From a virus: a stretch of DNA of 64,000 bases. The position numbers and the translations under genes are program-made. The DNA lies in the IMG/VR virus record IMGVR_UViG_3300008111_000003. One strand, 5' to 3'. Shown piece by piece: positions 1 through 59,162 of the stretch. The notes under the pieces were generated by a model. The model was not told where the DNA came from, searched no databases, and saw only the letters and a list, made by a program, of their open reading frames with translations. Numbering within the stretch: position 1 is the first letter of the stretch; each line of letters starts with the position of its first letter.

Positions 1-2
1 AT

Positions 3-671
3 TTTATATATGAGAATGATTCTACTGATAATACTAGTAAAACCTTATCTAGTCTTAAGTCCAAAGTTCAAAATTTCGATTATAGATCTGATAAACTAAA
101 TCTCAAACAGTTTGTTCACGGGAAAAACATGGACCTTAAATCCATAGAAAGAACGTCTAATCTTGCTAAACACCGTAACATTTGCTTATCTCATGTTCAA
201 AAGAATAATGACAAATTTGATTTTGTCATAGTGATGGATACAGATTTTCAAAAATTTAGTCTTGATGGTATCATTAATTCTTTTGGATGGCTGTCTGCTA
301 ATTATTGTGATGCTATGGTTGGTAATTCATTTGAGATGAAATCATTAACTATGGATCAAACATCTCAAATTATATGGAATTATGACTGTTGGGCATATAG
401 AGGCTCTTGGTGGGAAGATTTGCAAAAATATGCAGCAGTATATTCTCATGATCCTATGATGTGGTTTGGTTTTTGGCAACCGCCTATTGGAAGTAGTCCG
501 ATTAAAGTTAACAGTGCTTTTGGTGGTATTGCTATATATAAAAGCGCTGACTATATTAAAAGTAAATATGATGGATATGATTGTGAGCATGTATGTTTTC
601 ATAAAAATATGATCACTAAATTTCCAGATTATAAGATATGTATAAACCCATCTCAAATGATGTTTTTTTGA
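3..671 (+). CDS. Glycosyltransferase, GT69/CAP59-like (5'-partial; frame open from window start)
   Basis: Frame is open upstream of ATG 129 (FIYENDSTDNT). Motifs RN..L, VMDTD, YDCWAYR, VNSAFGGIAIY, DCEHVCFH, INP. Confidence 0.7.
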   Translation, partial: FIYENDSTDNTSKTLSSLKSKVQNFDYRSDKLNLKQFVHGKNMDLKSIERTSNLAKHRNICLSHVQKNNDKFDFVIVMDTDFQKFSLDGIINSFGWLSANYCDAMVGNSFEMKSLTMDQTSQIIWNYDCWAYRGSWWEDLQKYAAVYSHDPMMWFGFWQPPIGSSPIKVNSAFGGIAIYKSADYIKSKYDGYDCEHVCFHKNMITKFPDYKICINPSQMMFF

Positions 672-687
672 CTAAGGAGAATTTAAA

Positions 688-825
688 ATAACAATTGTAC
701 TTATTATTGCTATGTTGATTGGAGTATTTCAAGCATACATTTCAATTTGTGATGTTAGATTAAATAAAACTTCAGGTGTGAAACCTTCAAATAGTTTAAT
801 TGAATATATTTTTTTGAATCGCTAA
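688..825 (+). CDS. Small hydrophobic protein (~45 aa), start uncertain (ATA 688 after an AAGGAG SD, or ATG 712)
   Basis: Open frame ITIVLIIAMLIGVFQAYISI... fills the intergenic gap; SD near 674-680. Confidence 0.4.
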   Translation: MTIVLIIAMLIGVFQAYISICDVRLNKTSGVKPSNSLIEYIFLNR

Positions 826-826
826 G

Positions 827-1366
827 ATGAATAGACTTAATAATCAAAGAGTTTACCTTGCTGGTGCTATGGATAGGGTAATAGATCGTGGTACTGGATG
901 GAGAGATAGTATTACTCCATTTCTTACTAGTCTAGGAATAGTAGTTTTTAACCCAATTAGTAAACCAACCGATATCGGATTAGAAGATCATGATACTCAT
1001 CAAATTAAAACTAAACTGAAACATATGGGTCGATATGATGAATTGACTGCGATGATGAAAACTATACGAGCAGTAGATTTACGATTAGTTGATATTAGTG
1101 ATTTTCTGATAGTTAATCTTGATTTAGATCACTATGCTTGTGGAACATGGGAAGAAATAAGTCTGGCAAACCGTCAAAAAAAACCTATTATAGTTCATAT
1201 GGCTCAAGGTAAAAATCACGCACCTGACTGGCTTTTTGGAATGATCCCACACCAAATGATTTTTTCAAGTTGGGATGAAATCAAACATTATCTTAGCCAT
1301 ATTAATACATCAGAAAATATAGATACTCATAAGAGATGGTATTTCTTCAATGCAAAAAATAATTAA
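827..1366 (+). CDS. Nucleoside 2-deoxyribosyltransferase-like / nucleotide hydrolase
   Basis: VYLAGAM, WR, VFNP, D..LVD.SD, GT.EE motifs of the NDT-like fold. Confidence 0.7.
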   Translation: MNRLNNQRVYLAGAMDRVIDRGTGWRDSITPFLTSLGIVVFNPISKPTDIGLEDHDTHQIKTKLKHMGRYDELTAMMKTIRAVDLRLVDISDFLIVNLDLDHYACGTWEEISLANRQKKPIIVHMAQGKNHAPDWLFGMIPHQMIFSSWDEIKHYLSHINTSENIDTHKRWYFFNAKNN

Positions 1367-2468
1367 TGAAACTAAACTAGACTTCGATGATGTTCTCATA
1401 AGACCAAAAAGATCCACACTAAATAGTAGATCAGAGGTTAATTTAGTACGATCATATTCTTTTAAGTATTCTCCACGCAAATTATTAGCATCTCCAATTA
1501 TGGTTGCTAATATGGATACTGTTGGCACGTTAGATATGGCTAAATCCCTATGCCCACACTCCGCCATAACCTGCTTGCATAAACACTATACTAAAGAACA
1601 GTATATAGATTTTTATAAACAACAAGTTATTAATGATTTAGTTTTTTATTCTATAGGCACAAGCGAAAAAGATATCAATAAGGCGATAGAAGTATTTCGT
1701 TCTATTGAACAAACTAAACAATATCCAAATATTTGTCTTGATGTGGCAAATGGGTATACTGAACAGTTTGTAAAAACAGCATATAGATTAAGAAATTTAT
1801 TTCCAGAATCTATTATTATGGCTGGTAATGTAGTAACTCCAGAAATGACAGAAGAATTAATTATTCATGGACAGGTCGATATAGTCAAGGTTGGTATAGG
1901 GTCAGGCAGCGTTTGTACCACTCGTTTAAAAACGGGCGTTGGATACCCACAACTGAGTGCTGTAATGGAATGCTCCGATGCTGCTCATGGTCTAGGTGGT
2001 CATATTTGTAGCGATGGAGGTTGTAAAGTAGTCGGAGATATTGCGAAAGCTCTTGGTGGAAATGCGGATTTTCTAATGTTGGGAAGTATGTTTGCTGGTG
2101 TTGACGAGTGTGAAGGAGAATGGCAATATGAATATTTGGGAGGTAAAGATACAGATTATTTATTTTGGCAACCTTTTGATCCAGGCAATAACTCACCCAA
2201 AAGAAAAGTATCATTGAAATATTATGGTATGAGTAGCAAAGACGCTATGAATAAACACCATAATGGAGTAGCAGATTATAGAACAGATGAAGGCAAATGT
2301 GTGATTGTGCCATACAAAGGAACAGCACAAGATATTATACAAGATATCTATGGTGGATTAAGAAGTGCATGTACTTATATTGGAGCAAATAGCATTAAAG
2401 ATTTCGGTAAAAAAACAACTTTTATACAGGTAAATAATACTCATAATAAAATATATGAAAAACCTTAA
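1350..2468 (+). CDS. guaC: GMP reductase
   Basis: [57 protein letters not shown]. Confidence 0.95.
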
Positions 2469-3570
2469 TTTATTCTGCCCGATCAATGGTACTGGCTATG
2501 GAATAACATCATCAAATATAGCCAAGTCCCTAAATAAAGATTTAAATATCAGTCTATTTCCTATTGGATCTAATATAGATTGTAATAGTGAAGAAGATAA
2601 ACAGCTATTCCAAAAACTATTAAATAATAGTTCTACATTCGACTATTCTGCACCATGTCTAAAAATATGGCATCAATATGATTTGGCCATGAGGGTTGGT
2701 AATGGTCACTATTATAGTTTTCCATTCTTTGAAATTGATAAATTAACACCAAGAGAAATTCATCATTTAAACTATTGCGATTATATTTTTGTGGCTTCAT
2801 CGTGGGGTAAGAAAATACTTCAGGACAACGGAGTAAATAAGCCAATTATAGTTTGTCCACTAGGTGTGGATATGAATATTTTTAATGTTCCAGAATATAA
2901 AATTCGACTAGAGAAACCCACTTATACTTTTTATCATATTGGCAAGTGGGAGCATCGTAAGTCTCAAGATGTTTTGTTACAAGCGTTTGATGCCGCATTC
3001 AGACCAGATGATAATGTACAATTATTTCTATTGCCATTTAATCCATTTCTTAATGAACAAGAAAATAATTATTGGTTTAGTTTAGTAGATAATTGTAGAT
3101 TAAAAGATAAGATTAAAGTTTTTGGACGATTACAAACTCAATATCAAGTAGCACAATTTATTGATAATTGTGATTGTGGAGTCTTCGTATCTAGAGCAGA
3201 GGGCTGGAATAATGAAATTATAGAAAGTATGGCTATGAATAAACCTGTTATAGTAACAAATTATTCAGCTCATACTGAATACTGTAATAAAGACAATTCT
3301 TATCTGGTAGATATTGATAGCCTTGAGCCTGCTAATGACGGAAAATGGTTTGATGGGTCCGGTAATTGGGCTAAAATAGGACAAAATCAATTTGATCAAA
3401 TCGTTTCTCATATGAAATTTGTGTATAGTAACCATATAGACTCTAATTCCAATGGAGTTTTAACGGCCAAAAAATATAGTTGGGATCATACTGCCAGTAT
3501 TATACAATCATCATTCCTTAAGAATAATAGTTATTATGCCAATACCAAAAAGAAAACAAAACGAAGATAA
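2455..3570 (+). CDS. Glycosyltransferase family 4 (GT-B)
   Basis: TGYG, GKWEHRKSQD, SRAEGWN..IIESMAMNKPVIVTNYS. Confidence 0.85.
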   Translation: MKNLNLFCPINGTGYGITSSNIAKSLNKDLNISLFPIGSNIDCNSEEDKQLFQKLLNNSSTFDYSAPCLKIWHQYDLAMRVGNGHYYSFPFFEIDKLTPREIHHLNYCDYIFVASSWGKKILQDNGVNKPIIVCPLGVDMNIFNVPEYKIRLEKPTYTFYHIGKWEHRKSQDVLLQAFDAAFRPDDNVQLFLLPFNPFLNEQENNYWFSLVDNCRLKDKIKVFGRLQTQYQVAQFIDNCDCGVFVSRAEGWNNEIIESMAMNKPVIVTNYSAHTEYCNKDNSYLVDIDSLEPANDGKWFDGSGNWAKIGQNQFDQIVSHMKFVYSNHIDSNSNGVLTAKKYSWDHTASIIQSSFLKNNSYYANTKKKTKRR

Positions 3571-4204
3571 TCAGAAATTCGTGGCCCGTTGCATGGGTAA
3601 CGAAACCATGAAAAAGGAATATCCAGATTCTAAACAAAGAGTAGCGATCTGTCTTGGTCAAACTCGTACTAAATCTGGACTATTTGATTATGTATTAGAT
3701 ATCTTAGGTTTTTCGTTAGCCTATAATGATTGTGAAGAATGTGGAGATGTTGAAGAAATAAGCTTATCAAATATAGTTCCTCCAAAAGACGAGGATTATG
3801 TAGACTTTGGAGAAGATACAGAAGAATTAGAACTCCCAGTAGTTGCCAAATATGAATATATAGATCCTGTTACTTTTGAAAAATATTATTTTGAAAGAAG
3901 AGGAAACTACAAAAAAAATGGTCGATATCTTAGATATGAAGGGGAAAGTAAAGCTGCTGAATATCAAGGTCGCAAAGTAACATTAAATAAACCATTTAGA
4001 ACATCAAATGGTCCTAAAAAATTTGCTGTATATACTAAAAATGAAAGTGGTAATGTTGTAATAGTTCGTTTTGGTGATCCTGATCCGAATATGAAAATCA
4101 AAAAGAATATTCCAGAAAGACGTAAAAGTTTTAGAGCAAGACATAACTGCGATAATCCAGGACCAAAATGGAAAGCAAGATATTGGTCTTGCCGTGCGTG
4201 GTAA
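3536..4204 (+). CDS. Conserved phage protein with basic C-terminal domain
   Basis: C-terminal AEYQGRKV.LNKP...VRFGDP...RRKSFRARHNC...ARYWSC module seen in many large phages. Confidence 0.6.
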   Translation: MPIPKRKQNEDNQKFVARCMGNETMKKEYPDSKQRVAICLGQTRTKSGLFDYVLDILGFSLAYNDCEECGDVEEISLSNIVPPKDEDYVDFGEDTEELELPVVAKYEYIDPVTFEKYYFERRGNYKKNGRYLRYEGESKAAEYQGRKVTLNKPFRTSNGPKKFAVYTKNESGNVVIVRFGDPDPNMKIKKNIPERRKSFRARHNCDNPGPKWKARYWSCRAW

Positions 4205-5100: not shown

Positions 5101-5757
5101 ATGTTATTACAATTAAATGGTATTGGTAATCAAAAAATTCGATATAAAGATCATTCGGAGATTAATTTCGATAGTCTGGATCACTATGTGACTCTGGCTA
5201 AAAAATCTATAGCAAAATTTTCTAATCAGTTTTATCAAGGATTATCAACAAAAATGCTGAAGGATGAAGATGCTATATCCTCTGTTGCTAATGCTATTAT
5301 GATGGCAGATTGGAGATGGGATGAAAACTATCAAAATGAAAAAGGAACAAAAAAGACCAGATACTCCTATCGAAATCAGTGTGCATTATGGGCTATTCAG
5401 ACCTATATAACAAAAGATCACAAAAAAGACAAGAAATTTAAGAAAAAATTCTTTTCCTTGGACCATGAAATCGAATCAGATGATAGCACAGTATATAACT
5501 GTACACAAGATGAGAAGATGATGTCCCCAGATGATATTTTGATTCAAAAAGAAGACAAAGAAGAATTAACAAAGCTGATTGAGTCCCTACTCTCCTTAGA
5601 CTGCTTAACTCCTAGACAAAAAGACTATATCAAACTATATTACTTTGAGGCTTACACATTTGAAAAAATTGGTCAAAAATATGGTATAACACGAGAAGCA
5701 GTTAGACAGGGTTTAAATAAAGCTATTAATATGATAAAGGAAACAGTTAATGTTTGA
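5101..5757 (+). CDS. Phage RNA polymerase sigma-70-family factor
   Basis: Region 4 HTH LTPRQKDYIKLYY...TFEKIGQKYGITREAVRQ; region-2-like segment; AAGGAG SD. Confidence 0.8.
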   Translation: MLLQLNGIGNQKIRYKDHSEINFDSLDHYVTLAKKSIAKFSNQFYQGLSTKMLKDEDAISSVANAIMMADWRWDENYQNEKGTKKTRYSYRNQCALWAIQTYITKDHKKDKKFKKKFFSLDHEIESDDSTVYNCTQDEKMMSPDDILIQKEDKEELTKLIESLLSLDCLTPRQKDYIKLYYFEAYTFEKIGQKYGITREAVRQGLNKAINMIKETVNV

Positions 5758-6941: not shown

Positions 6942-7625
6942 ATGACAAATGTTACCAACAATGACTTCACTCTTCTTAATACTATTCATGATTATAATAT
7001 TGATCTAAATAATAGAGAGATATATCTACACTCATATATGTCTGATGAATCTGATGAGGCTGGCGTTGATTATAGATCAGCAATAGTATTTGAAAAAAAC
7101 CTACGCTACCTTAACAGCATATCATTAGAACCCATTCTTGTGCATATGCATTTGCCTGGCGGCGACTGGCAAGATTGTTTGGGCATTTATGATTCTATAC
7201 GAGCCAGCAAAAGCAAAGTTATTATAGTCGCTACTGCTAAAGTTGAATCTAGTAGTAGTGTACTATTGCAAGCGGCAGACCTGAGAATTCTAACACAAAA
7301 TACTAATTTTTTGATCCATTATGGATCACTTAGTATTGATAACGAACACAAGGCCGCTTTAAGCACAGTACAGTGGAGTGAAAAAGAGAGCGAAAAGATG
7401 ATCGATATATTCACTGAAAAGTGTATGAATAGTATTATATGTAAAGAAAAAAATTGGAAAAGAATGATGGTACGAAAACATATTGTGAGTCAGTTAGCCA
7501 CAAAAAGAGATTGGATACTAACATCGGACGAGGCCGTAAGATATGGTTTTGCTGATGGAGTATTAGGCACAAAAAAATATCCCAACATAGAATATATCAA
7601 AAACTTAATGAAGAAATCAAAATAG
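6942..7625 (+). CDS. clpP: ClpP-like protease subunit
   Basis: REIYL, PGG, IYD, VES (Ser), FLIHYG (His), RDWIL (Asp), EAVRYGFADGV. Confidence 0.8.
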   Translation: MTNVTNNDFTLLNTIHDYNIDLNNREIYLHSYMSDESDEAGVDYRSAIVFEKNLRYLNSISLEPILVHMHLPGGDWQDCLGIYDSIRASKSKVIIVATAKVESSSSVLLQAADLRILTQNTNFLIHYGSLSIDNEHKAALSTVQWSEKESEKMIDIFTEKCMNSIICKEKNWKRMMVRKHIVSQLATKRDWILTSDEAVRYGFADGVLGTKKYPNIEYIKNLMKKSK

Positions 7626-9568: not shown

Positions 9569-10048
9569 ATGGGAATTGTAAGAATAAATGAACTTCCAGA
9601 AGGCTCTGGTAATTTAACTAATGATGATATTTTCATTTTTATGGATGATCCATCTGGTGGTGGAGTTACTAAAAAAATTAGTTTGAGTGAAATTAGTAAC
9701 GCTATTGGTGTAGGATCGCCTAGTTTTACAGTTATTAATCTTGGTAGTGTTAGTGGAAATATTAATACTGATGCTAGTTCTGGTGGCATTTTTGATCTAA
9801 CATTAACTGGTAGTGGACTATTAACCAATCCAACCAATCCAACAAATGGTCAAACATTAAGGTGGAGAATACGTCAAGATAATACTGGTAATAGAATATT
9901 AAGTCTTGGAAATAAATTTAAGATTCCATCTAGCGCAACCAATCCACTCCCTTTTAGTGGCGGGAGTGGCGTTATGGATATTCTTGGTGCCACATATCAT
10001 GCTGGTCGTGACAAATGGGATATTGTAGCATTTGTACCCGGTTACTAA
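9569..10048 (+). CDS. Tail/fiber-associated structural protein
   Basis: RINELP...TKKISL N-terminal motif; NPTNGQ...IRQD.TG.R C-terminal fiber-type domain. Confidence 0.55.
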   Translation: MGIVRINELPEGSGNLTNDDIFIFMDDPSGGGVTKKISLSEISNAIGVGSPSFTVINLGSVSGNINTDASSGGIFDLTLTGSGLLTNPTNPTNGQTLRWRIRQDNTGNRILSLGNKFKIPSSATNPLPFSGGSGVMDILGATYHAGRDKWDIVAFVPGY

Positions 10049-10076: not shown

Positions 10077-10379
10077 ATGAATTTATCAAATCCTATTACT
10101 ATTCAGCCACCAACTATTATAAGAGCCGATGGAGAAGTGCGAGTTCAAAATCCCATAATAATTAAAGAACTTAGTTTAATAATTATTGATGATGTAAAAA
10201 ATAAAAATGTTATTGTTAAAATTAAACCATGTCCTTTTCCCTTGGTTGTATGGACAAAACAAGATTATGATACTGTAGGTGATTATACCCAAACCCAATT
10301 AGAAAATAGAGTATTAGAGTTGCTTGGGGATGATATTAAAAGTAGTCTAGAAAAATTATTTAAGCCTCCAACTAGATAG
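10077..10379 (+). CDS. Hypothetical protein (possible fiber chaperone)
   Basis: AAGGAG SD; located in the tail block. Confidence 0.55.
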   Translation: MNLSNPITIQPPTIIRADGEVRVQNPIIIKELSLIIIDDVKNKNVIVKIKPCPFPLVVWTKQDYDTVGDYTQTQLENRVLELLGDDIKSSLEKLFKPPTR

Positions 10380-10386
10380 TTTAAAA

Positions 10387-12200
10387 ATTATGGCAACATT
10401 TTATTTGTATGCTACCAATCTAGAAGATGGTTACATCAACTGGAATAGTCTTGGTAATTGGTGGATGAGCTATAATGCTGAAACCAATGTTTATTCTGTT
10501 CCAGCCTCAACTTTACCATCAAGTTCTGATGATGTTATAATTAAAGATCAAACTCTATCTATCTCTATTGGTAATAATGGACCAAACATAGTAATAAATA
10601 ATTTAACTATTGATATTTCATCCAACCAGTACGCATATCTTGAAAACATAACAATCACAATAAATAATACTTGCTATTTAAATAATACGACTTTGTCTCC
10701 TAATACAACCATAAATGGAAATTGTGTTTTTACTGGTAGTGCTACCATATATCAAGATGTTATTGTTAATGGAGATTGTATTTTTAATGCTAATGATGTC
10801 TATAATGGTTTTTATATAGGTGGTGGAATCATTAATGGAAATATAATATGTAATGATAATAATTGGAATACGATAATTATCGGAGCAGCGTATAGCCCAC
10901 TCGTTATAAATGGTGATCTCACTTTGAATGGTTGGTGTAGGATGGATAATCAGACTGATAACTTAACTATAAATGGAAATTTGATATTGAATAATATTTC
11001 ATATATAGAAAGTACTACACTTACTGTTAATGATGGAACTATCACTTTTAATGATTATTCTAGCAATTATGGTACTATAACCGGAAATTGTGTTTTTAAT
11101 GATTATTCTAACAATGGTGGTACTATAACGGGAAATTGTGTTTTTAATGGTTATTCTATAGGTGGTGGTACTATAACCGGAGATTGTGTTTTTAATCATA
11201 GTTCTCACCATAATGGAATAATTTATGGTATTGCTTTGTTTAAAGACTCAAGTTATCAAGAATCATCGTCTGTAGTAGAATATATTGAATATACTAATAG
11301 AACACCATATCCAATACCGGGTGGTATTAATGGAGGTATGCTAGCAATAGCATAGAAGAATTATGGCAACATTTTATTTGTATGCTACCAATCTAGAAGA
11401 TGATTATGGTTACATCGACTGGAATAGTCTTGGTAATTGGTGGATGAGCTATAATGCTGAAACCAATGTTTATTCTGTTCCAGCCTCAACTTTACCATCA
11501 AGTTCTGATGATGTTATAATTAAAGATCAAGACCCAAACTATCCTTATAGTAGTTTTATTATTTATAATAATGGACCAAACATAGTAATAAATAATTTAA
11601 CTATTGATATTTCATCCAACTGGTTCGTAGATCTTATAGACATAACAATCACAATAAATAATACTTGCTATTTAAATAATACGACTTTGTCCCTTAATAC
11701 AACCATAAATGGAAATTGTGTTTTTACTGGTAGTGGTACCATATATCAGGATGTTATTGTTAATGGAGATTGTATTTTTAATGCTACCACCATTAATGAT
11801 GGTTTTTATATAGGTGGTGGAATCTTTAATGGAAATATAATATGTAATGATAATAATTGGAATGTGATAGTTATCGGAACATCGTATAGCCCACTCGTTA
11901 TAAATGGTGATCTCACTTTGAATGGTTGGTCTTATATGTTTTATGACACTTATAACTTAACTATAAATGGAAATTTGATATTGAATAATATTTCATATAT
12001 AGAAATTAGTACACTTACTGTTAATGATGGAACTATCACTTTTAATGATTATTCTTACAATATTGGTACTATAACCGGAGATTGTGTTTTTAATGATTAT
12101 TCTTACAATAATGGCATTATAACCGGAGATTGTGTTTTTAATGGTTATTCTATAGGTGGTGGTACTATAACCGGAGATTGTGTTTTTAATCATAGTTCTA
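10387..12200 (+). repeat. Tandem ~0.8-kb direct duplication (about 10387-11206 vs 11360-12199) with internal 51-bp repeats
   Basis: Long identical tracts, e.g. actggaatagtcttggtaattggtggatgagctataatgctgaaaccaatg, in both copies. Confidence 0.9.
10390..11355 (+). CDS. Beta-helix repeat protein, paralogue A (putative receptor-binding/adhesin)
   Basis: 17-aa repeats GTITG(N/D)CVFNxYS; near-identical to 11363..12364. Confidence 0.7.
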   Translation: MATFYLYATNLEDGYINWNSLGNWWMSYNAETNVYSVPASTLPSSSDDVIIKDQTLSISIGNNGPNIVINNLTIDISSNQYAYLENITITINNTCYLNNTTLSPNTTINGNCVFTGSATIYQDVIVNGDCIFNANDVYNGFYIGGGIINGNIICNDNNWNTIIIGAAYSPLVINGDLTLNGWCRMDNQTDNLTINGNLILNNISYIESTTLTVNDGTITFNDYSSNYGTITGNCVFNDYSNNGGTITGNCVFNGYSIGGGTITGDCVFNHSSHHNGIIYGIALFKDSSYQESSSVVEYIEYTNRTPYPIPGGINGGMLAIA

Positions 12201-12364
12201 GTAATTATGGAACAACAATCTATGGTAATGCCACATTTAAACACGCTAGTTATAATAAGAATGATGGGGCGTATGTAATAACAGGAACTGAATCTTATTC
12301 TCAAAGAGATACTTGGCCATTACCACGCGGTATTAATAGATCAAATATTTTAGGATTAATTTAA
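11363..12364 (+). CDS. Beta-helix repeat protein, paralogue B
   Basis: Tandem duplicate of 10390..11355 with variable patches and a different C-terminus. Confidence 0.7.
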   Translation: MATFYLYATNLEDDYGYIDWNSLGNWWMSYNAETNVYSVPASTLPSSSDDVIIKDQDPNYPYSSFIIYNNGPNIVINNLTIDISSNWFVDLIDITITINNTCYLNNTTLSLNTTINGNCVFTGSGTIYQDVIVNGDCIFNATTINDGFYIGGGIFNGNIICNDNNWNVIVIGTSYSPLVINGDLTLNGWSYMFYDTYNLTINGNLILNNISYIEISTLTVNDGTITFNDYSYNIGTITGDCVFNDYSYNNGIITGDCVFNGYSIGGGTITGDCVFNHSSSNYGTTIYGNATFKHASYNKNDGAYVITGTESYSQRDTWPLPRGINRSNILGLI

Positions 12365-12365
12365 T

Positions 12366-12770
12366 ATGAGCGCAAAACTATATGATTTCTCTATTGAACA
12401 AGGAACATCCTTTAGATTATCTTTAATATATAAAGATAGCAATGGAGACGTTATTGATCTCACTAATTATTGTGCTAGATTAACTATGAAAACTGGAAAT
12501 AATGAGTATAAAACTTTTAGTAGTTTAAATACTAATTTTAGTGAGTATAAATTTACTATTGATGGACCTCAAGGAACCATAACATTACTGATCCCGGCCA
12601 CAACTACTAATAACTATAATTTCAATAGTGCCAAATATGATTTAGAATTACAAAGTGATCAAGATTTATATAGTGGTGGTGGCAAACTCACAATAAGAGT
12701 ATTATATGGTACAATAACCATAGTTAAAAGATTTAGCCAATCATCTATTATACTAGATTGTTCATTATGA
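12366..12770 (+). CDS. Virion structural protein (fiber/baseplate attachment-like)
   Basis: YDFSIEQGTSF...DLT.Y.ARL...YDLEL...LYGTITI pattern typical of this phage family. Confidence 0.55.
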   Translation: MSAKLYDFSIEQGTSFRLSLIYKDSNGDVIDLTNYCARLTMKTGNNEYKTFSSLNTNFSEYKFTIDGPQGTITLLIPATTTNNYNFNSAKYDLELQSDQDLYSGGGKLTIRVLYGTITIVKRFSQSSIILDCSL

Positions 12771-15700
12771 GTTGTTTTGATGTTAAAATTTTAGATCCTG
12801 ATATTAACACCATAACTATTGAAAGTTGTATTGGTGATCAACCAGCGTCTATAGAGGTTATCACTTATAATAATACGAATATTTTAGAAGTTAATAGTTG
12901 TGTTGCATTATTACCATCTGATATTAATGATTTAATACCGGTTAAAGATATATTACCAGGAAGCGGAATAGGTATAGTATCAACTAGTGGAATTTATACT
13001 ATATCATTAAATGATCCTAATTTAACATCTAGTGATATAATTGATTTTTTAGAGAGTGTTCAGGATATTATTGGGCAGAGTGGACTGTATGCGGGAAATT
13101 ACATTAATTTAAGTTATAATGATACTACAGGCTTTACCACAATATCAGTCACAGGATTACAGCCGAGTGGTAATTATAGCGTGGTCGGTCATACTCATAT
13201 AAGTTCTAATATTACTGACTTTAATAGCTCCGTTAGTGGACTGTTACCAATTAAAAATATAACCGCTGGCAGTGGAATAGGAATATCTTCAGTTTCTGGA
13301 GATTATATAGTTAGTGTAACAGGAACTTTTGGACTAACTAGTGAAGAGGTCGATGATAGGGTTAGTAAATTATTAATAGCTGATAATTATGTTAACTTAA
13401 ACTATGATGATATTGCTAATAGTTTAACAATCAGTGTAACAGGATTACAGCCAAGTGGCAATTATAGTTTAGCTGGTCATACGCACTTTAGTAGTGATAT
13501 TACCGACTTTAGTAGTTCTGTAAGTGGACTATTGCCACCATCAAATTTTACATCACTAATAGGAGTTAGTGGCATAACAGTTAGTAATAGTGGAACAAAT
13601 TATACTGTTAGTTTAACTGATCCAACAATACAACTAGCAGATATCACAGATTTGTCATCTAATAGTAGAACTTTCCTATTAACTCCATCTAGTTCCAATT
13701 TAGCCACCCTCATTACTGATGAAACTGGTTCTGGATTTTTGGTTTTTAATAATAGTCCAACATTAAGTGGAATACCTACAGCACCAACCGCACCAAGTGG
13801 AACCAATAATACTCAAATTGCTAATACAGCATTTGTACGAACAGAAATTAGTAATCTCATTAACTCTGCACCGAGTACACTAGATACACTAAATGAATTA
13901 GCCTCTGCTCTTGGTAATGATCCTAATTTTGCAACTAGTGTAACTAATAGTTTAGCATCTAAGGCCGCCCTTGCTGGAGCAATTTTTACTGGGCCAGTAA
14001 CTATTCCAAGTGGAACTGGTAATTTTAATAGTTTAACTGTGAATGGAATAGGAATAAGTTTAAGTGGTCATTCTCATACCATAGCCGATATAATAAACTT
14101 TAATAGTGGAGTAAGTGGTTTATTACCAAATATAACCGGTATCAATTATATAATATCAAACTTTTCTGATAATATTTATTCTATTGGTGTTACTGGCTTA
14201 CAACCTAGTGGAAATTATAGTGTTGTTGGCCACACTCACTCTAGTTTAGATATAACAAATTTTAATTCTAGTGTTAGTGGCTTATTACCAACTGTTACTG
14301 GAATTGATCAAGTAACCTCCAAATTTACCAATAATACTTACACTATTTCTGTAACAGGACTACAGCCGAGCGGGAATTATAGTGTGGTTGGCCACGCTCA
14401 CATAACCAGCGATATAACAAACTTTAGTAGCGGTGTGAGCGGACTACTTCCCGGCGTTAGTGGCTCTGGCTATGCTGTCTCAAACTTTGCTAACAACATT
14501 TATACTATTAGTGTAACAGGACTACAGCCAAGTGGTAATTATAGTGCTGTTGGACATAATCACACTATTAGTGATATTACTAATTTCTCTAGTGGAGTAA
14601 AAAATATAGTATCAACCACATTAGTAGCTGGTACCGGAATAGTATTTGATGAAAATTTAATTAATAATACATTTACTATTAGTACAACTGGATTACAACC
14701 TAGCGGAAATTATAGTATTGTTGGACATGTTCATACATCTAGCGATATTACTAATTTTGATAATAGTGTAAGTGGATTATTGCCAGTAAAAAATATATCT
14801 GCTGGAAGTGGTATAGGAGTAACCTCATTATCTGGTGATTATACAGTGAGTGTAACTGGGACATTTGGTTTAACTAGTGAAGAAGTTGACGATAGAATAT
14901 CATCATTATTAATTGCTGGTAATTATATTAATCTCAATTATAATGATAATCTAAATAGTTTGACTATTAGCACAACTGGACTACAGCCTAGCGGAAACTA
15001 CAGTTTAGTTGGTCATACACACGTTAGTAGTGAAATTACAAATTTCAATAGTAGTGTTAGTGGACTATTACCAAGTATTACTGGTTCTGGCTATATTACT
15101 TCTAACTTTAGTAATAATATCTATAATCTTAGTGTAACCGGATTACAACCTAGCGGAAACTATAGTTTAATAGGACATAATCATTCTAGTAGTGAAATTA
15201 CTGATTTTAATACCTCTGTTAGTGGATTAATTCAGGTTAAAGATATTCTTGGTGGGACAAATGTTAGTATTGGTAGTTCTAGTGGAGTATATACAGTTAG
15301 TATTACTGGTGGAGTTGTAGCTAGTAGTGCATCATCGTTAACAGTAAGTTGTCATAATCTAACCGGATCAACAATTAATAGAATGAGTGCTGTTTATATT
15401 AATGGTGGCCACGGCAACGAACCAACAATATCTCTAGCTATTGCTAATAGCGAAAGTACTAGTAGTAAAACATTTGGTTTAGCGGTTGAAGATATTAATG
15501 ATAATAATAGTGGTGATGTGATTGTTATTGGTTCCCTAATAGATGTTAATACTGATCAATTTGGAGTTGTTGAAGGAACCACTTTATATCTTAGTCCGAG
15601 TATTTCGGGTGCTTTAACAACAATTAAACCATTAGCCCCAAATCATTTAGTTACTATTGGTAAAATTGTTCGTAATCATATTAATCAAGGAATAATTCAA

Positions 15701-16162
15701 GTTAGTATACAAAATGGTTTTGAGCTATATGAACTACACGATGTTGCCGTAACAGGAGCTATTGCTGGTCAATTTTTACAACGTAATGGTAGTGGTTTAT
15801 GGATTCCATCCAGTAGTGGTAATTTTACAACGCTACAAGTAAATAATACAGACGTAAGTTTAAATGGTCATACTCATACTAGTAATAATATAACAAACTT
15901 TAACTCTAGTGTTAGTGGATTGTTACCAGTGACAAATATAATAGCTGGTTCTAATATTGGAGTTTCACAATCTGGAACAGTATTTACTATTGCGGTAACC
16001 GGTCTAACGGCAGAAGATGTCGATGATAGAGTAGCAAACTTATTAATAGCTGGTACTGGTATAAGCTTAAATTATAATGATAATGCAAATACTTTGACAG
16101 TAAACACTACAACAAATATTATTAATAGTTCTAATTTATATTTATGGTCATCTTTTAGGTAA
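12767..16162 (+). CDS. Long repetitive tail fiber protein
   Basis: Eight TGLQPSGNYSxxGHxH repeats; PTAPTA...TQIANTAFV and APSTLDTLNELASALGNDPNFA fiber motifs. Confidence 0.85.
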   Translation: MSCFDVKILDPDINTITIESCIGDQPASIEVITYNNTNILEVNSCVALLPSDINDLIPVKDILPGSGIGIVSTSGIYTISLNDPNLTSSDIIDFLESVQDIIGQSGLYAGNYINLSYNDTTGFTTISVTGLQPSGNYSVVGHTHISSNITDFNSSVSGLLPIKNITAGSGIGISSVSGDYIVSVTGTFGLTSEEVDDRVSKLLIADNYVNLNYDDIANSLTISVTGLQPSGNYSLAGHTHFSSDITDFSSSVSGLLPPSNFTSLIGVSGITVSNSGTNYTVSLTDPTIQLADITDLSSNSRTFLLTPSSSNLATLITDETGSGFLVFNNSPTLSGIPTAPTAPSGTNNTQIANTAFVRTEISNLINSAPSTLDTLNELASALGNDPNFATSVTNSLASKAALAGAIFTGPVTIPSGTGNFNSLTVNGIGISLSGHSHTIADIINFNSGVSGLLPNITGINYIISNFSDNIYSIGVTGLQPSGNYSVVGHTHSSLDITNFNSSVSGLLPTVTGIDQVTSKFTNNTYTISVTGLQPSGNYSVVGHAHITSDITNFSSGVSGLLPGVSGSGYAVSNFANNIYTISVTGLQPSGNYSAVGHNHTISDITNFSSGVKNIVSTTLVAGTGIVFDENLINNTFTISTTGLQPSGNYSIVGHVHTSSDITNFDNSVSGLLPVKNISAGSGIGVTSLSGDYTVSVTGTFGLTSEEVDDRISSLLIAGNYINLNYNDNLNSLTISTTGLQPSGNYSLVGHTHVSSEITNFNSSVSGLLPSITGSGYITSNFSNNIYNLSVTGLQPSGNYSLIGHNHSSSEITDFNTSVSGLIQVKDILGGTNVSIGSSSGVYTVSITGGVVASSASSLTVSCHNLTGSTINRMSAVYINGGHGNEPTISLAIANSESTSSKTFGLAVEDINDNNSGDVIVIGSLIDVNTDQFGVVEGTTLYLSPSISGALTTIKPLAPNHLVTIGKIVRNHINQGIIQVSIQNGFELYELHDVAVTGAIAGQFLQRNGSGLWIPSSSGNFTTLQVNNTDVSLNGHTHTSNNITNFNSSVSGLLPVTNIIAGSNIGVSQSGTVFTIAVTGLTAEDVDDRVANLLIAGTGISLNYNDNANTLTVNTTTNIINSSNLYLWSSFR

Positions 16163-31098: not shown

Positions 31099-31527
31099 AT
31101 GTCTGATAAACTTTATCCTTCAAAGTATTCTAACGGTAAACAAGTTACCGCAGCCCAGTATATCACAGAGATAATCTGTGAAAGAAAAGCTAAGAATAGT
31201 AAAAAAGATTTACATTATAGATTTTGGACCAATAAATTATGGGAAAAATTCTATAAGGATCAAATTGCTTCTGCGCATAAGTTGTTAAAAAAATACTCTG
31301 ATACTGCTATTATAAGAGCCCTAAATAGCGATAAGGCTCAAAAAATATACTCTCTGCGAGCACCTTTTTTAACTCCTATCATAGAGCAAGAAGAACAAAA
31401 ACTACAGAGTCAAAACCAAGAACTGTCACTAAAATTAAGTAGACCAAGCACAGTTAATTTTGATCGTAATTCAGTCAAACAGTCAAATATTATTTCCAAG
31501 TTAAAGGATCTAGATAATGAGTCTTAA
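31099..31527 (+). CDS. Hypothetical protein
   Basis: Operon-style ORF. Confidence 0.6.
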   Translation: MSDKLYPSKYSNGKQVTAAQYITEIICERKAKNSKKDLHYRFWTNKLWEKFYKDQIASAHKLLKKYSDTAIIRALNSDKAQKIYSLRAPFLTPIIEQEEQKLQSQNQELSLKLSRPSTVNFDRNSVKQSNIISKLKDLDNES

Positions 31528-32527
31528 AGATGATGTGGTTAAAAGCTTCGGTGATAATGTTATATTAAATGGTAATGCTATTATAGACCAAAAAGTATTA
31601 ACCATTCCAGTAAGTCCATCTATAGACTATGCTCTTAATGGAGGTATTCCAGAAGGCAGTTTTGTTATTTTAACTGGACATCCTAAATGTGGAAAAACGC
31701 TAACTTCGTTAGACTTTGCTGCTACGGCACAAAAAGAAATTTATCAAGGAGATTTAAAAAAACCAAGAGAGGTTTATTATTTGAATGTTGAGGGTAGGCT
31801 AAGAAAAAGAGACTTAGAAGGTATAGCTAATTTAGATTTATCCAGATTTAATGTTATTGGTAGTCAACAGGGTAAAATATTACATGCCGAGGAATATCTA
31901 ACCATAGCAGAAAAAATTATTAATGAGATCCCTGGGTCTATTCTTATTATAGACTCGTATTCATCGTTATGTACAGAAGCAGAAATCACCAGTGAAATGG
32001 ATAAAATGCAAAGAGCAGATGGTGCTAAATTATTGAAAAAGTTTTGCAGAAAGGTCGGCAATGTTATTCCGGTTAATAAAAATATTGTAATTGGTATCAC
32101 TCATTTAATAGGTAATCCAACCGGATATGGTGCAGAATTTAAAGAGGGCGGTGGTACCGGTATTGCTTATCAGGTAGATGTTAAGTTAAGAGCCAAATCG
32201 AGTAAGCCATGGCTATTAGGTGCTGAAAATACACAAATAGGACAAGAAATAGAGTGGATAGTTGGTTCTTCTCCATTAGGACCACCAGGACGCCAAGTTC
32301 TAGGTTATATTAGATATGGACAGGGTATAGATAAACAAATGGAAGCTATTGTAATGGCTTCTGATCTTGGATTAATACATAAGGGTGGGGCATGGTATAC
32401 CTTTACAAGCTTGCCTGATAAGCCTAAGTTTCAAGGAACAGAAAAGGCTAGACAGTACTTAGTTGAAAATGATCTTATATATCAAGATCTTGTAAAAACT
32501 ATAAAAATAACTTTAGGCATAGAATGA
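31517..32527 (+). CDS. recA: RecA/UvsX-like recombinase
   Basis: GGIPEG, G.PKCGKT Walker A, IIDS Walker B, GG, I.YG.GID, GAWY. Confidence 0.9.
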   Translation: MSLKDDVVKSFGDNVILNGNAIIDQKVLTIPVSPSIDYALNGGIPEGSFVILTGHPKCGKTLTSLDFAATAQKEIYQGDLKKPREVYYLNVEGRLRKRDLEGIANLDLSRFNVIGSQQGKILHAEEYLTIAEKIINEIPGSILIIDSYSSLCTEAEITSEMDKMQRADGAKLLKKFCRKVGNVIPVNKNIVIGITHLIGNPTGYGAEFKEGGGTGIAYQVDVKLRAKSSKPWLLGAENTQIGQEIEWIVGSSPLGPPGRQVLGYIRYGQGIDKQMEAIVMASDLGLIHKGGAWYTFTSLPDKPKFQGTEKARQYLVENDLIYQDLVKTIKITLGIE

Positions 32528-45487: not shown

Positions 45488-47140
45488 ATGAATAAAAAAA
45501 GAATTTTAATTGCCAATGATGCTAGTTTTCTCGATACCGGATACGGAGTATACGGTAAAGAAATCATTTCACGCATTCATAACAGCGACAAATATGAAGT
45601 AGCAGAATTAGGATGTTATGCTGGTATAGGTGATTCAAGAATAAAAAATATTCCTTGGAAATTCTATCCAAATGCTGTTAAAACTGATGATCCTAGGTTT
45701 CAGCAGTATTCATCTAATAATCTCAATCAATTTGGATTATGGAGATTCAATAGATGCTTGGTGGATTTCAAACCACATATTGTTTTTGATGTTAGAGACT
45801 ATTGGATGTACTCTTATCAAGATACTAGTCCATATAGATCATATTTTAGTTGGGTTATAATGCCAACTACCGATTCTGATCCTCCAAAGATAGAATGGCT
45901 ATATACCTATCAAAATGCTGAATTAGTAGTACCATATACTAATTTTGCTAAAAATGTCTTACAGCGATCTTGTGGAAATAAAATAAATCTATTTCCAAAA
46001 ATAGCTAATGCTGGTATTAATCCTAATGAATTTTATCCTATAGAAAATAAATTAGCACATAAGATTAAATATCTAGGAAGAGATCTAAATATAGTAGGTG
46101 TTGTTATGCGTAATCAAAAACGCAAATTAATAGCTGAACTATTGCTAGCATTTAAAATGTTTCTGGAACAATTGAAGACTTCCAAGCAAGACGATATATA
46201 TAATAAAACATATCTTTATTTGCATACATCTTATCCTGAAGAAAATGGGTGGGATATTCCATCTTTACTATTAGAATATGGTTTATTAGATAAAGTATAC
46301 TTTACATACAAATGTAGATTTTGTAATAATGTTTCTGTAGGAAAATTTCATCCATCATTAAAAATATGTTCTAAATGCAATAATAGATCAGTATCATTAG
46401 CTGCGTCAAACAATGGTATTACAACCAGTGAACTAAATGAGATATATAATTTATTTGATATTTTCATACAGTATGCTATTTGTGAAGGATTTGGTATGCC
46501 ACAGGTAGAAGCGGCAGCATGCGGCTTACAAATAGCTTCTGTTGATTATAGTGCTATGAGTGAAATCGCAGAAAATTTAAATGGTATAAAAATACCTGTT
46601 CAAAAGATGTTTAGAGAAATGGAAATTAATGCTAATAGGGCATATCCAGATAATAATTTTACTGCTAATATGTTATATAACTTTTTTGTAAACACATCAG
46701 ATGATATTAAAGCAACTAATAGTGATCTTATTAGAGAAAAATGTTTATTAACTTATACTTGGGATAATGTTTATAGAGTTTGGGAAGAAGCATTTGATAC
46801 TATAGATATTAATAGTAAATTACCATGGTATCATAAGAATATGTCAAATATAGAAAATACATCAATTAAAGTACCAATCAATATAAGTGGAAAAGAGTTT
46901 ATAGAGTTTATTTGCTTAAAAGTTATTAATGATCCACATTTATTAAAAACAGCAAATATACAATCTCTAATAAAAGACATTACCAATACTTTAATTACTA
47001 GATCTGGTTCTATAGGAATTTTTGATAAAAAAGAAGCATTAGAAATACTAGAGGGATTTTTCAATAATAAAATTATATGTGAAAAAATGAGAACTAATCC
47101 AGAACTTATAACTAAAGAAGACTTTATCAATGCTCAATGA
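45488..47140 (+). CDS. Glycosyltransferase family 4 with zinc-ribbon insert
   Basis: TGYG, RNQ.RK, EGFGMP..EA.ACG; CRFC...CSKC. Confidence 0.85.
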   Translation: MNKKRILIANDASFLDTGYGVYGKEIISRIHNSDKYEVAELGCYAGIGDSRIKNIPWKFYPNAVKTDDPRFQQYSSNNLNQFGLWRFNRCLVDFKPHIVFDVRDYWMYSYQDTSPYRSYFSWVIMPTTDSDPPKIEWLYTYQNAELVVPYTNFAKNVLQRSCGNKINLFPKIANAGINPNEFYPIENKLAHKIKYLGRDLNIVGVVMRNQKRKLIAELLLAFKMFLEQLKTSKQDDIYNKTYLYLHTSYPEENGWDIPSLLLEYGLLDKVYFTYKCRFCNNVSVGKFHPSLKICSKCNNRSVSLAASNNGITTSELNEIYNLFDIFIQYAICEGFGMPQVEAAACGLQIASVDYSAMSEIAENLNGIKIPVQKMFREMEINANRAYPDNNFTANMLYNFFVNTSDDIKATNSDLIREKCLLTYTWDNVYRVWEEAFDTIDINSKLPWYHKNMSNIENTSIKVPINISGKEFIEFICLKVINDPHLLKTANIQSLIKDITNTLITRSGSIGIFDKKEALEILEGFFNNKIICEKMRTNPELITKEDFINAQ

Positions 47141-47882
47141 AAATATAAATAAAATCCATACTCCGTGTAAAGATTGTGTATTTGCAAAATATGAAAATAA
47201 TACCCAGATAGATTGTGAACTAGACTATATATCCAAATACAAAACTAAAAATATAGAGATACTAGAAGCCTATGATAATAGTAAAGAATTCTACATTATT
47301 AATGGGAAAAAATGTATTGGATACAGAGAAGATAAGTGGTTCGATAGGTTTGATTTGAAAGATAGTTCTATAAAGGATAAGATTGATAAATATAATGAGC
47401 TTAATAATCTTGATTATTTATTAGTAGTTGATCTTAAAAAGATAAGTATAAATCAATTAGAGGATATTCTAGAACAAGTTGATACACTGGATATCAAGCC
47501 TAAAAAATTAGTTATTATTAGATATGCTGATAATATGGGTTTTCCATATGAAATGTTAAAAAACCTACTGGATAAATATGCTAAGAATTATGTGTGGCGT
47601 ATTCAAACTATATTGGATCCATTATTAACATTTGATAATATACTAAAAAATATTGTGTCATTAAATTCTAATCGATTTATTGTATCTCTTACTAACTATA
47701 ATACAGACCTAAAGAAACTTATTGATCACACAAACAAAGTTGTCCATTATGACCTGGATCAATTCAATATTGTTTCCAATCAAAATAAAGACTGCTTAGT
47801 ATTTAGTCGTGGCATTTATGCTTTTGAAATTTTTAATGGTCAAAACCTACTGGATAATGAATCTAATTATACAATCATATGA
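47130..47882 (+). CDS. Hypothetical protein (possibly degenerate GT-A)
   Basis: Operon-style ORF. Confidence 0.5.
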   Translation: MLNENINKIHTPCKDCVFAKYENNTQIDCELDYISKYKTKNIEILEAYDNSKEFYIINGKKCIGYREDKWFDRFDLKDSSIKDKIDKYNELNNLDYLLVVDLKKISINQLEDILEQVDTLDIKPKKLVIIRYADNMGFPYEMLKNLLDKYAKNYVWRIQTILDPLLTFDNILKNIVSLNSNRFIVSLTNYNTDLKKLIDHTNKVVHYDLDQFNIVSNQNKDCLVFSRGIYAFEIFNGQNLLDNESNYTII

Positions 47883-48511
47883 ATATTATTATTCTTGGCG
47901 ATAAATATCAGAAAAGAATGAAATCACGAGGCTGTGTTGGTTTAATAAAGTTACAAAATAAGAACATATTACATCACCAATATAAAATACTTACCAATAA
48001 GTTTGCACTATCAAAAATAGTATATATCTACGGGTTTGATAATAAGAGATTACTATCTTATCTTGAAAAAAATAATCAAGCATATAGTCAACTTGAATTT
48101 GTTCATAATAACAGATATGATCAATATAATAATGCTTACAGTCTTTCTTTAGTTAAGGAATATCTAGACGATGATCTTTTAATAATGTTTGGAGATAAAA
48201 TTCTAACCGCTAATACCTTTAGTAAGTTTGATAGTAGTAAGTTTTCACAAATTTTTATAGATCATAATTCGCAGTCTAAACTAGGATGTATTATTCATAA
48301 TAATAAAGTAGAGAATATTTGTTATGATCTTGACAATAACCTATCTGAAATTTACTTTATTTCACGGGATCAAGCACAAGATCTAAAAAAAATAGTATCT
48401 AATCCATCATTTTACAATTACTTTGTATTTGAGCTATTAAATAAAATGATTGATTCAAATCAAACCATAGTTCCACATTTCATTAACAAAAAGACCTCTA
48501 ATGCGATATAG
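47879..48511 (+). CDS. Nucleotidyltransferase-like (LicC/MobA fold), degenerate
   Basis: IIILG...RMKS.G...L, N..Y...NN.YSL, GD. Confidence 0.65.
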   Translation: MNIIILGDKYQKRMKSRGCVGLIKLQNKNILHHQYKILTNKFALSKIVYIYGFDNKRLLSYLEKNNQAYSQLEFVHNNRYDQYNNAYSLSLVKEYLDDDLLIMFGDKILTANTFSKFDSSKFSQIFIDHNSQSKLGCIIHNNKVENICYDLDNNLSEIYFISRDQAQDLKKIVSNPSFYNYFVFELLNKMIDSNQTIVPHFINKKTSNAI

Positions 48512-48863
48512 TATATTTTCAACAGATATAGCAAAAGATATTGATCTAATAGAAAGAATAAAAACTTTTCTTTACAATAATACTGATATAGAAGACTTTT
48601 TTATTTTTAGTGATGAGACTATGTGTTTATTGCATGATCATAGTTCATTGCCAACTTTTTATACTGTAGGATATAATGGCACTATAATATTTTTGACGGT
48701 TCAAGACTATCTGTTATTCAGAGATAAGGCGAATGGGGATATAGCAGTATTTCTAAATAAAGAAGACCTATCAAATATTGATCGTAGTACGATAAAAAAT
48801 CACAAAATCATTATTGAGGATGTTGATTCGACTTTAAAATGGGTGCCGAGCTATGGATTATAA
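48501..48863 (+). CDS. Hypothetical protein
   Basis: Operon-style ORF. Confidence 0.5.
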   Translation: MRYSIFSTDIAKDIDLIERIKTFLYNNTDIEDFFIFSDETMCLLHDHSSLPTFYTVGYNGTIIFLTVQDYLLFRDKANGDIAVFLNKEDLSNIDRSTIKNHKIIIEDVDSTLKWVPSYGL

Positions 48864-49647
48864 CAAACTGTCTGATAAACAAAAAAGAGAGCTGCTTAGT
48901 AAAGAATATGAAACCAATAATAAAAGCTTTAAAGATATAGCCGATAGTGTTGGTACATACGCTAATAAGATAAGACGAGATGCTATTAAATTAGGAATAA
49001 AAATCAGAGATAAAAGCGAGGCCCAAAAGAATGCTCTTCAACGTGGAAAAGCAGTTCATCCAACAAAAGGAACAACAAGACCAGAAAGCATAAAAACTAA
49101 GATAGGGCTTGGTGTTATGCAATCATGGGAGGATATGGATGATCAAACACTGAATGATAGAAAAAATAAAGCCAGAATAAATTGGGAAAGTTTATCGCAG
49201 GATAAAAAAGATAATATTCTAAGAGAAGCTAATAGCGCTGTAAGAGAAGCTAGTAAACAAGGATCAAAACTTGAAAAGTTTCTACTGCAACAGTTGATTC
49301 AAGACGGATACAAGGTTGAATTTCATAAAGAGCAATCATTATTAAATACCAAATTGCAGATTGATCTATTTCTACCTACTCTGAATATAGCCATAGAGGT
49401 TGATGGACCATCGCACTTTAAGCCCGTATGGGGTGATGATAATCTTAAGCGTAATAAGGGTTATGATAATAAAAAGACAGGATTAATTCTTGGTAAAGGA
49501 CTCGTGCTAATAAGAATCAAACAAACCAAAGATTTTTCTAAAGCGCGAGGAATAACAATCTATAATGAACTAAAAATCCATATAGAGTCTATCAAAAACA
49601 AATTTCCGGATAAAGATAATAGGAACTTAGAAATAGGAGACAATTAA
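48853..49647 (+). CDS. Vsr/DUF559-like endonuclease with HTH and NUMOD-like region
   Basis: SKLEK, IDLFLP..NIAIEVDG..H, D..K. Confidence 0.7.
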   Translation: MDYNKLSDKQKRELLSKEYETNNKSFKDIADSVGTYANKIRRDAIKLGIKIRDKSEAQKNALQRGKAVHPTKGTTRPESIKTKIGLGVMQSWEDMDDQTLNDRKNKARINWESLSQDKKDNILREANSAVREASKQGSKLEKFLLQQLIQDGYKVEFHKEQSLLNTKLQIDLFLPTLNIAIEVDGPSHFKPVWGDDNLKRNKGYDNKKTGLILGKGLVLIRIKQTKDFSKARGITIYNELKIHIESIKNKFPDKDNRNLEIGDN

Positions 49648-50381
49648 TGGCCAGACCCAAAAAAGAAGTTACACAAACCGTTAACGATGGCATATCTTTT
49701 GAGGTTGAGGTCAATGCAAAAACTGTATCACCTAATGATTTGGAATGGACTGATCATGTATTGGGATTATTAAATGAAGATGAAAAAATTAGTGGTAATC
49801 CTACCACAGATGGATTAAGGCGTATATTTGAAAAGGTCTTAAATTGTACAGTTATAGAAGCCAGACCAGAAGTTGTTCAATCACCAGATTTGGCAAATGA
49901 ACGTCGAGCCACCGTAGTTTATAGTATAGGCTATGTTTTAAATGATCCTGATCTACCAGAGTCACTTAAATATCGGTCTGTTAGTGCCGCAGCAGACGTT
50001 TACTGGGGCAACTGTGATAAGATTTATCGTAATCATCCTGTTGCTGTTGCAGAAACGCGTGCAGAAGGACGAGCATTAAGAAAAGCTCTTAAATTACGAA
50101 AAGTTGTTACCGCTGACGAAATTGCTAAGGAAGTTGTGGATCATAGTAGCGAAAGTAGTAATAACACCATAAATACTAGCCAATTAAATTTCTTTGATGT
50201 TTTTGGTAAACGGCTAAACGTAAACATCAAAAAACTGCTAGATCACCTTGCTATTAATAGTTCTAATGTTTATAATATCTCATACGATGATGCTGTAAAA
50301 ACTATAGCCACATTGTCAGGATATCAACAAAGTAATGATATTCCAACAGAAGTTCTTGGATATGACTCCAACTGGAAGTAG
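49647..50381 (+). CDS. Putative ssDNA-annealing (Rad52/Sak-like) protein
   Basis: A.AETRA.GRALR..L motif. Confidence 0.5.
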   Translation: MARPKKEVTQTVNDGISFEVEVNAKTVSPNDLEWTDHVLGLLNEDEKISGNPTTDGLRRIFEKVLNCTVIEARPEVVQSPDLANERRATVVYSIGYVLNDPDLPESLKYRSVSAAADVYWGNCDKIYRNHPVAVAETRAEGRALRKALKLRKVVTADEIAKEVVDHSSESSNNTINTSQLNFFDVFGKRLNVNIKKLLDHLAINSSNVYNISYDDAVKTIATLSGYQQSNDIPTEVLGYDSNWK

Positions 50382-50388
50382 GTGAATT

Positions 50389-54563: not shown

Positions 54564-54626
54564 TTATTTATATTTCGCAAGATGTTGTATTGATCCATCT
54601 TAACCACAAATGAAATAGAAAATAAA

Positions 54627-59151: not shown

Positions 59152-59162
59152 AGGAGAAATAA

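Follow-up and report, generated by a model that had tools for sequence, protein, structure and literature searches.

A tandem pair of predicted phage beta-helix proteins with a shared scaffold and two-state variable patches

The 64,000-nucleotide stretch of IMG/VR virus record IMGVR_UViG_3300008111_000003 analyzed here (hereafter the window) comes from an uncultured tailed phage of ~140-158 kb and ~32% GC, with nearly all of its genes on the + strand; public contigs with the same proteins reach 139-158 kb. Its tail fiber module holds two intact tandem open reading frames (ORFs), copy A and copy B, whose products share 78% amino acid sequence identity. A preliminary description of this DNA had likened the pair to the targets of a diversity-generating retroelement (DGR), and had proposed either an atypical long-range diversifier or selection with gene conversion on one binding face. 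Comparison of the two copies, their predicted fold, and their variants in public assemblies speaks against the first proposal and leads us to favor a form of the second. The genes and their internal repeats are as follows.

10390-11355, + strand: copy A, a 321-amino acid (aa) beta-helix protein in the tail fiber module (ORF; family hidden Markov model E 5e-79; exact protein on 21 public contigs)
11363-12364, + strand: copy B, a 333-aa paralogue that shares the scaffold of A but diverges in 13 patches and over the last ~45-55 codons, at its C-terminal end (ORF, alignment, AlphaFold2 model)
10998-11254, + strand: 48-nt (16-aa) tandem coil repeats in copy A (repeat family D1, spacing 48)
11992-12248, + strand: 48-nt (16-aa) tandem coil repeats in copy B (repeat family D1)

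The duplicated unit begins at least 7 nt upstream of each ATG (repeat family D8). An assembly artefact in the window was ruled out, both exact proteins having been found again on several independent contigs, as was an inversion or shufflon system, the copies being direct repeats and no recombinase of that type having been seen.

Copies A and B are identical in nucleotide sequence over runs of up to 113 nt, and their differences extend from codon 14 to the stop codon. Scaffold statistics refer to the first 279 columns of the codon alignment, which hold 272 aligned codons; 228 of these are identical, 39 differ non-synonymously and five only synonymously, in good agreement with the approximately 35 and 4 codons of the earlier manual count. 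Over the whole gene there are 71 non-synonymous and nine synonymous codons, together with five indel events. The scaffold differences fall into 13 patches, outside of which there are no non-synonymous changes at all, and they cluster more than chance allows: 18 codons carry two or three differences, whereas 6.8 would be expected if the 66 nucleotide differences were placed at random (maximum 16 in 5000 simulations). The 66 differences are distributed over codon positions 1, 2, and 3 as 31:23:12 (chi-square against equal shares, p = 0.016). Thus, the long identical tracts and the bias toward the first two codon positions that were noticed at the outset are both genuine, and the three codon strings quoted as examples are exact (columns 86-92, 214-215, and 231-233). 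The shift in surface chemistry from A to B is directional and not a random scatter, with aromatic residues at 14 of 46 variable sites in B and 4 of 39 in A, and with nine aspartates at variable sites in B and three in A.

By the Nei-Gojobori (NG86) method, 644 scaffold sites are non-synonymous, with 56.2 changes, and 172 are synonymous, with 9.8 changes. Since 79% of the sites in this AT-rich gene are non-synonymous, the excess of non-synonymous change is less marked than it appears; the informative signal is instead a spatial one, with synonymous changes located next to non-synonymous ones. Each of the five synonymous-only differences is at most four codons away from a non-synonymous difference (permutation p = 0.009). 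The proportion of synonymous sites that differ (pS) is 0.015 outside the patches (2 of 137 sites) and 0.23 within them, where the corresponding non-synonymous proportion (pN) is 0.42. In the C-terminal 45 codons, pS rises to 0.45, with a synonymous substitution rate (dS) of 0.69 and a ratio of non-synonymous to synonymous rates (omega) of ~1. A single gene pair therefore has three apparent ages, one for the scaffold, one for the patches, and one for the C-terminus.

An AlphaFold2 model of B, for which an alignment of 49 sequences was used, is all beta, with a mean predicted local distance difference test score (pLDDT) of 88 and a predicted template modeling score (pTM) of 0.85. In a full structural scan (VIA-align), the model matches many right-handed parallel beta-helix chains with Z of 15-18, covering residues 1-326, and the best matches (Z 17-18) include tailspike receptor-binding domains and adhesins, such as the cyanophage Pam1 tailspike (7eea), the CBA120 tailspikes, and the adhesin EtpA. 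Foldseek with the B model against PDB and BFVD gave just non-significant beta-helix rows, a profile search of PDB sequences gave only a weak match to YdcK, and the protein atlas matches were unnamed viral clusters (score 0.85). We conclude that A and B are predicted to fold as right-handed parallel beta-helices, with coils, each made of three short strands, stacked into a long solenoid.

We assigned the coil register by laying out the sequence coil by coil, which gives 13 coils of 16-25 residues. Of 55 variable residues, 44 (80%) lie at a coil offset of 10 or more, a region with 48% of the coil residues (p = 1.3e-6), in keeping with the clustering once per helical turn seen in the preliminary description. 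In the regular 16-aa coils, the variable residues occupy alternate positions 12 and 14, as expected for outward-pointing side chains on one strand and thus on one outer face of the predicted helix. The positions that vary between A and B coincide with those that are unconserved in the consensus of the whole family. The C-terminal ~14 residues of B (12320-12361) are the sole part of the model with pLDDT below 50, yet this tail is conserved family-wide; a conserved but seemingly unstructured tail suggests binding to a partner or to another subunit.

Approximately 25 public variants of the A and B proteins were collected from JGI, ENA, and NCBI assemblies and scored patch by patch. They alternate between A-type and B-type blocks, switching one to four times, and only four small departures from the two states were seen: a two-residue insertion, a three-residue duplication, and, twice, a pair of point changes. 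Among the mosaics, one has an A body that ends in the B C-terminus, and another is A in its body except for patches 124-167, which are in the B state; a third, with a B background but the A state at patches 189 and 214, occurs in four assemblies from several sources (JGI, ENA, and NCBI), on contigs of up to 97 kb. Coil number varies too, with some variants having gained two 16-residue coils (365/367 aa) and others having lost about eight (183-199 aa), and such gain and loss fits exchange between the 48-nt internal repeats.

Two further observations concern these variants. Four copy A variants (P0088, P0089, P0091, and P0092, on contigs of 43-134 kb) break after approximately residue 204 and continue into differing out-of-frame tails, giving proteins of 207-219 aa; these breaks reflect either repeated inactivation by deletions into the 48-nt repeat zone or assembler mis-joins. 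P0006 (183 aa) and P0075 (367 aa) have the same length, 28,987 bp, for their longest listed contig, and if this is one contig, then there may be a strain with a shortened copy 1 and a copy 2 lengthened by two coils.

Neither copy matches a Pfam or PHROGs family. The Bactofilin model (PF04519) scores 10.6 bits (E 0.71), under its gathering threshold of 27.9 bits, and a few distant homologues have a precomputed PF04519 match. On the evidence of full-length similarity and a common gene neighborhood, A and B belong to an uncharacterized family of phage beta-helix proteins, with 437 cluster representatives (50% identity) at E of 1e-3 or lower and 186 at 1e-10 or lower. Its members range from 183 to 1914 aa; an N-terminal segment of ~55 aa and a C-terminal tail are conserved, whereas the number of 16-25-aa coils varies. 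Long members of 822-1392 aa are found at L011:8001-12179, L016:498-3668, and L015:7986-10454, such that coil number varies more than five-fold between phages. Most related loci carry one copy, but locus L014 (7105-8822) has a tandem pair that is just 32% identical, which indicates that duplication recurs and that homogenization is not universal. BLASTN and TBLASTN searches of a phage collection with the locus gave no match. When viral, metagenome, and genome contig collections were scanned with the A and B proteins or their alignment, no relative of the close pair was identified, and a scan with P0019 found nothing.

The genes surrounding the pair, and the recombinase considered below, are the following.

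9569-10048, + strand: small fiber-like gene (159 aa) that goes with the beta-helix gene in related phages (weak match to phrog_7760, tail fiber)
10077-10379, + strand: 100-aa gene that adjoins the beta-helix gene in relatives (homologues with 48-58% identity)
12366-12770, + strand: phrog_1084 gene preceding the long fiber (synteny with the fiber in L004, L007, L012, and L014)
12758-16162, + strand: 1134-aa long tail fiber (PHROG tail fiber families down to E 6e-32; Pfam PTR, phage tail repeat)
31517-32527, + strand: RecA/UvsX-like recombinase (Pfam RecA 1.2e-14, RecA_C)

The family gene lies within the fiber-gene cluster in 17 related IMG/VR loci, with a long fiber nearby in seven. A homologue of the 100-aa gene directly adjoins it, before or after, in 15 of the 17 (L001, L002, L004-L012, and L014-L017). 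A homologue of the 159-aa fiber-like gene is in the same cluster at nine of the 17, and is fused to the long fiber in L015. The product of either small gene could serve the beta-helix protein as a docking partner or as a chaperone. The window as a whole encodes a ribonucleotide reductase, a DnaB-like helicase, a split DnaE-type polymerase, the RecA-like recombinase, PhoH, many glycosyltransferases, and the tail fiber block; the phage also encodes a PD-(D/E)XK nuclease. Known phages are distant: their polymerase is ~30% identical, and at the DNA level none matches the locus. The genes upstream of the structural block (5101-5757, 6942-7625, and 1350-2468) include one for a sigma-70 region 4 protein, one for a ClpP-like protease, and one that is inosine monophosphate dehydrogenase/guanosine monophosphate reductase-like. 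Glycosyltransferase genes are unusually numerous at 1-4204 and 45488-59918, and include GT1/GT4, GT2, an N-acetylglucosamine transferase family, and CAP59-like and HtrL/YibB-like genes.

If a DGR or another targeted mutagenic diversifier were responsible for the A/B differences, then either one copy would template the other, or both would be variable repeats of a template elsewhere in the genome. We took the definition of a DGR from the Mtd system of Bordetella phage BPP-1 (PMC3240598). Like Mtd, the A/B pair is a target in a phage tail fiber module with non-synonymous, clustered changes mostly at codon positions 1-2, and the variable codons often retain position 3. The searches for a reverse transcriptase (RT) and for a template cover the 64-kb window of a genome of ~150 kb, a reach that itself leaves some room for a DGR. 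Within the window, RVT_1 is absent from all 38 Pfam-scanned ORFs (179-1281 aa, with all unannotated ORFs of at least 250 aa included), the few ORFs annotated through PHROGs have functions other than RT, and the DGR-type RT motif [ILV]GxxxSQ is in none of the six frames. The third copy sought at the suggestion of the preliminary description was likewise not found in the window by sensitive BLASTN and TBLASTN, and there is no pair of template and variable repeats with mismatches at template adenines. RVT_1 (PF00078) is also absent from five related IMG/VR phage records with the family, two of which are estimated complete.

The substitutions themselves are not adenine-directed. Of the 66 differing sites, 23 have adenine in A, 15 have it in B, and 28 have it in neither copy; this last share (42%) is not by itself incompatible with a DGR that has two variable repeats. 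There are, however, 253 adenines common to both copies that are unchanged, 20 of them within differing codons, and 40 AAY codons are identical in A and B. Transitions and transversions are nearly equal (32 and 34). Retrohoming does not produce indels, and it acts by substitution in a short 3' variable repeat, whereas the A/B variation includes indels and is spread over ~800 bp of beta-helix, unlike a C-terminal lectin-type or Ig-type repeat. A DGR is also expected to generate many states at each variable codon, but the public variants come from many samples and, with the four small exceptions, show only two states per patch. Moreover, a single-copy 386-aa relative differs by 0-1 nt across eight IMG/VR contigs. 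The points initially raised against a classical DGR, namely the lack of an RT or template in the window, the whole-gene variation, and the invariant AAT codons, were thus well founded, but the suggestion of an atypical, DGR-like diversifier does not survive the combination of these results, and we regard a mechanism of this type as very improbable.

The explanation that we think probable, if by no means certain, is that A and B derive from an old tandem duplication in which gene conversion homogenizes the scaffold while selection maintains divergence on one exposed face and at the C-terminal end. The duplication, taken to be old from a dS of ~0.7 in the last 45 codons, would have given the phage a second copy of a gene for a candidate receptor-binding beta-helix protein. 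Exchange between A and B by homologous recombination, in the form of gene conversion and unequal exchange, would keep erasing differences over the first ~280 codons, and the RecA-like recombinase of the phage is a plausible driver of this exchange. Selection for two distinct binding surfaces would preserve the exposed differences in the last third of the coils and at the C-terminal end, with neutral differences surviving only where they are tightly linked to selected sites. The same recombination would reassort patch states between the copies and, through the 48-nt internal repeats, would add or remove coils. The long identical tracts, the mosaics, and the neutral divergence close to the putatively selected sites are together the pattern expected of concerted evolution by gene conversion between tandem paralogues. 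Given its predicted fold and its location, the most likely role of the A/B protein is that of a receptor-binding component or an adhesin, and the face of B rich in aromatic residues and aspartate suggests a carbohydrate ligand.

Several observations weigh against this explanation. Scaffold omega is 1.56 and not significantly greater than 1 (NG86, Fisher p = 0.27), so positive selection is inferred from the clustering and not demonstrated by the rates. The idea of selection with gene conversion on one binding face, as proposed initially, therefore fits the mosaics, the patch-confined synonymous changes, and the coil-register bias, and its non-synonymous excess is real as a codon count, but the comparison of rates gives no formal evidence of positive selection. 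The in-patch pS of 0.23 is lower than the C-terminal pS of 0.45 (binomial p = 0.006), and several patches retain rare C or G third bases, both of which also fit patches that are younger and fast-evolving. The variants were compared at the protein level, and some of the mosaics are on short contigs of 1-4 kb and could be assembly chimeras across identical tracts of 55-113 nt.

The main rival draws on some of the same observations. It holds that the duplication is recent, that exposed positions then changed very rapidly through adaptive point substitution without any part played by gene conversion, and that the C-terminus was acquired by module exchange with another phage. A scaffold nearly without synonymous change is what such a history would leave, as are 54 of the 66 differences at codon positions 1-2, rare third bases (C/C, G/G) kept in many differing codons, and a lower pS in the patches than at the C-terminus. 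It predicts, however, that synonymous differences should be evenly spread, yet they cluster at the patches, and three patches with indels or several third-position changes look replaced or old. The mosaic variants show that exchange between copies does occur, and the C-terminus requires an extra horizontal event; we consider this history possible but unlikely. The differences could alternatively have no adaptive meaning, one copy drifting toward a pseudogene under relaxed constraint and changing at structurally tolerant surface positions. An omega of ~1 to 1.5 is compatible with neutrality, the variable positions are the family-wide unconserved ones, and four public copy A variants are truncated as described above. 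Both copies are nevertheless intact here and on many contigs, multi-hit codons are far above what the very low scaffold dS allows, and B has a directional gain of aromatic and acidic residues; neutral drift also leaves the missing scaffold synonymous changes unexplained, and we judge it improbable that relaxed constraint accounts for the pair.

The closest likeness of design is with the T-even phage adhesins gp38 and gp37, in which conserved motifs part hypervariable segments and recombination within the conserved motifs makes chimeric specificities (Trojet et al. 2011, PMC3157838, citing Tetart et al. 1996, 1998). As at the A/B locus, conserved elements alternate with short variable segments that each draw on a restricted palette, chimeras arise via exchange in the conserved elements, and duplication of a small repeat unit alters the adhesin. 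The A/B proteins differ in being predicted parallel beta-helices of ~330 aa and not a glycine-rich core with omega loops, and in that the exchange partners are in tandem in one genome, whereas those of the T-even phages are in co-infecting phages; the likeness is solely one of design. No gp38 family was matched by A or B in Pfam at E of 1 or lower, and none was among the PHROG matches.

In predicted fold and in their fiber-module location, A and B resemble the tailspikes and fibers of Pam1 (7eea) and CBA120 (TSP2-4; 6w4q/5w6p, 5w6f, and 5w6h), with the B model aligning to 7eea over 276 residues (Z 18.2, 3.4 Å root-mean-square deviation) and to 5w6f with Z 17.2. Multi-tailspike phages also have more than one paralogue per genome. 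Unlike the Pam1 and CBA120 tailspikes, to which their identity is just 6-13%, A and B are without a separate head-binding domain or a recognizable catalytic site, and their coils are much more regular (16-25 aa).

As for the evolutionary process, the theory of Innan and Teshima is said to predict that concerted evolution with selection for divergence leaves islands of divergence around the selected sites. Antigenic variation by gene conversion is known in the pilE/pilS system of Neisseria and in vlsE of Borrelia. With both, the A/B pair has in common paralogues that are identical but for putatively selected sites, linked neutral differences nearby, and mosaic alleles. It differs from pilE/pilS and vlsE in having just two expressed copies, without an archive of silent cassettes or dedicated conversion machinery. 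We found nothing directly comparable in the literature on tandem tail fiber paralogues with gene conversion.

A more speculative version, and one that we think rather doubtful, is that the tandem pair is a built-in, RT-free generator of diversity whose architecture is itself selected, as has been suggested for the gp38 motifs. The perfectly conserved tracts of 26-113 nt would then act as recombination guides, and frequent conversion between the two expressed copies, driven by the RecA-like protein, would reassort the 13 two-state patches and the coil number. If so, numerous combinations of receptor-binding faces would be present in the phage population at all times.

A DGR-like pattern, in which the scaffold is identical, changes cluster at codon positions 1-2, and each structural repeat has one patch, can thus arise without a retroelement. 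Simple tests that separate DGR from non-DGR loci are the accounting of adenines, the presence of indels, how many states each site has in populations, and the location of synonymous changes. The analysis also defines a fairly widespread beta-helix family without a Pfam model, its 437 clusters having conserved ends and an adjustable coil number and lying always in the fiber module. If the two faces of the A/B pair bind different receptors, then the pair would be a compact natural case of dual specificity with recombinational reshuffling, and this would be useful for understanding and engineering the host range of uncultured environmental phages.

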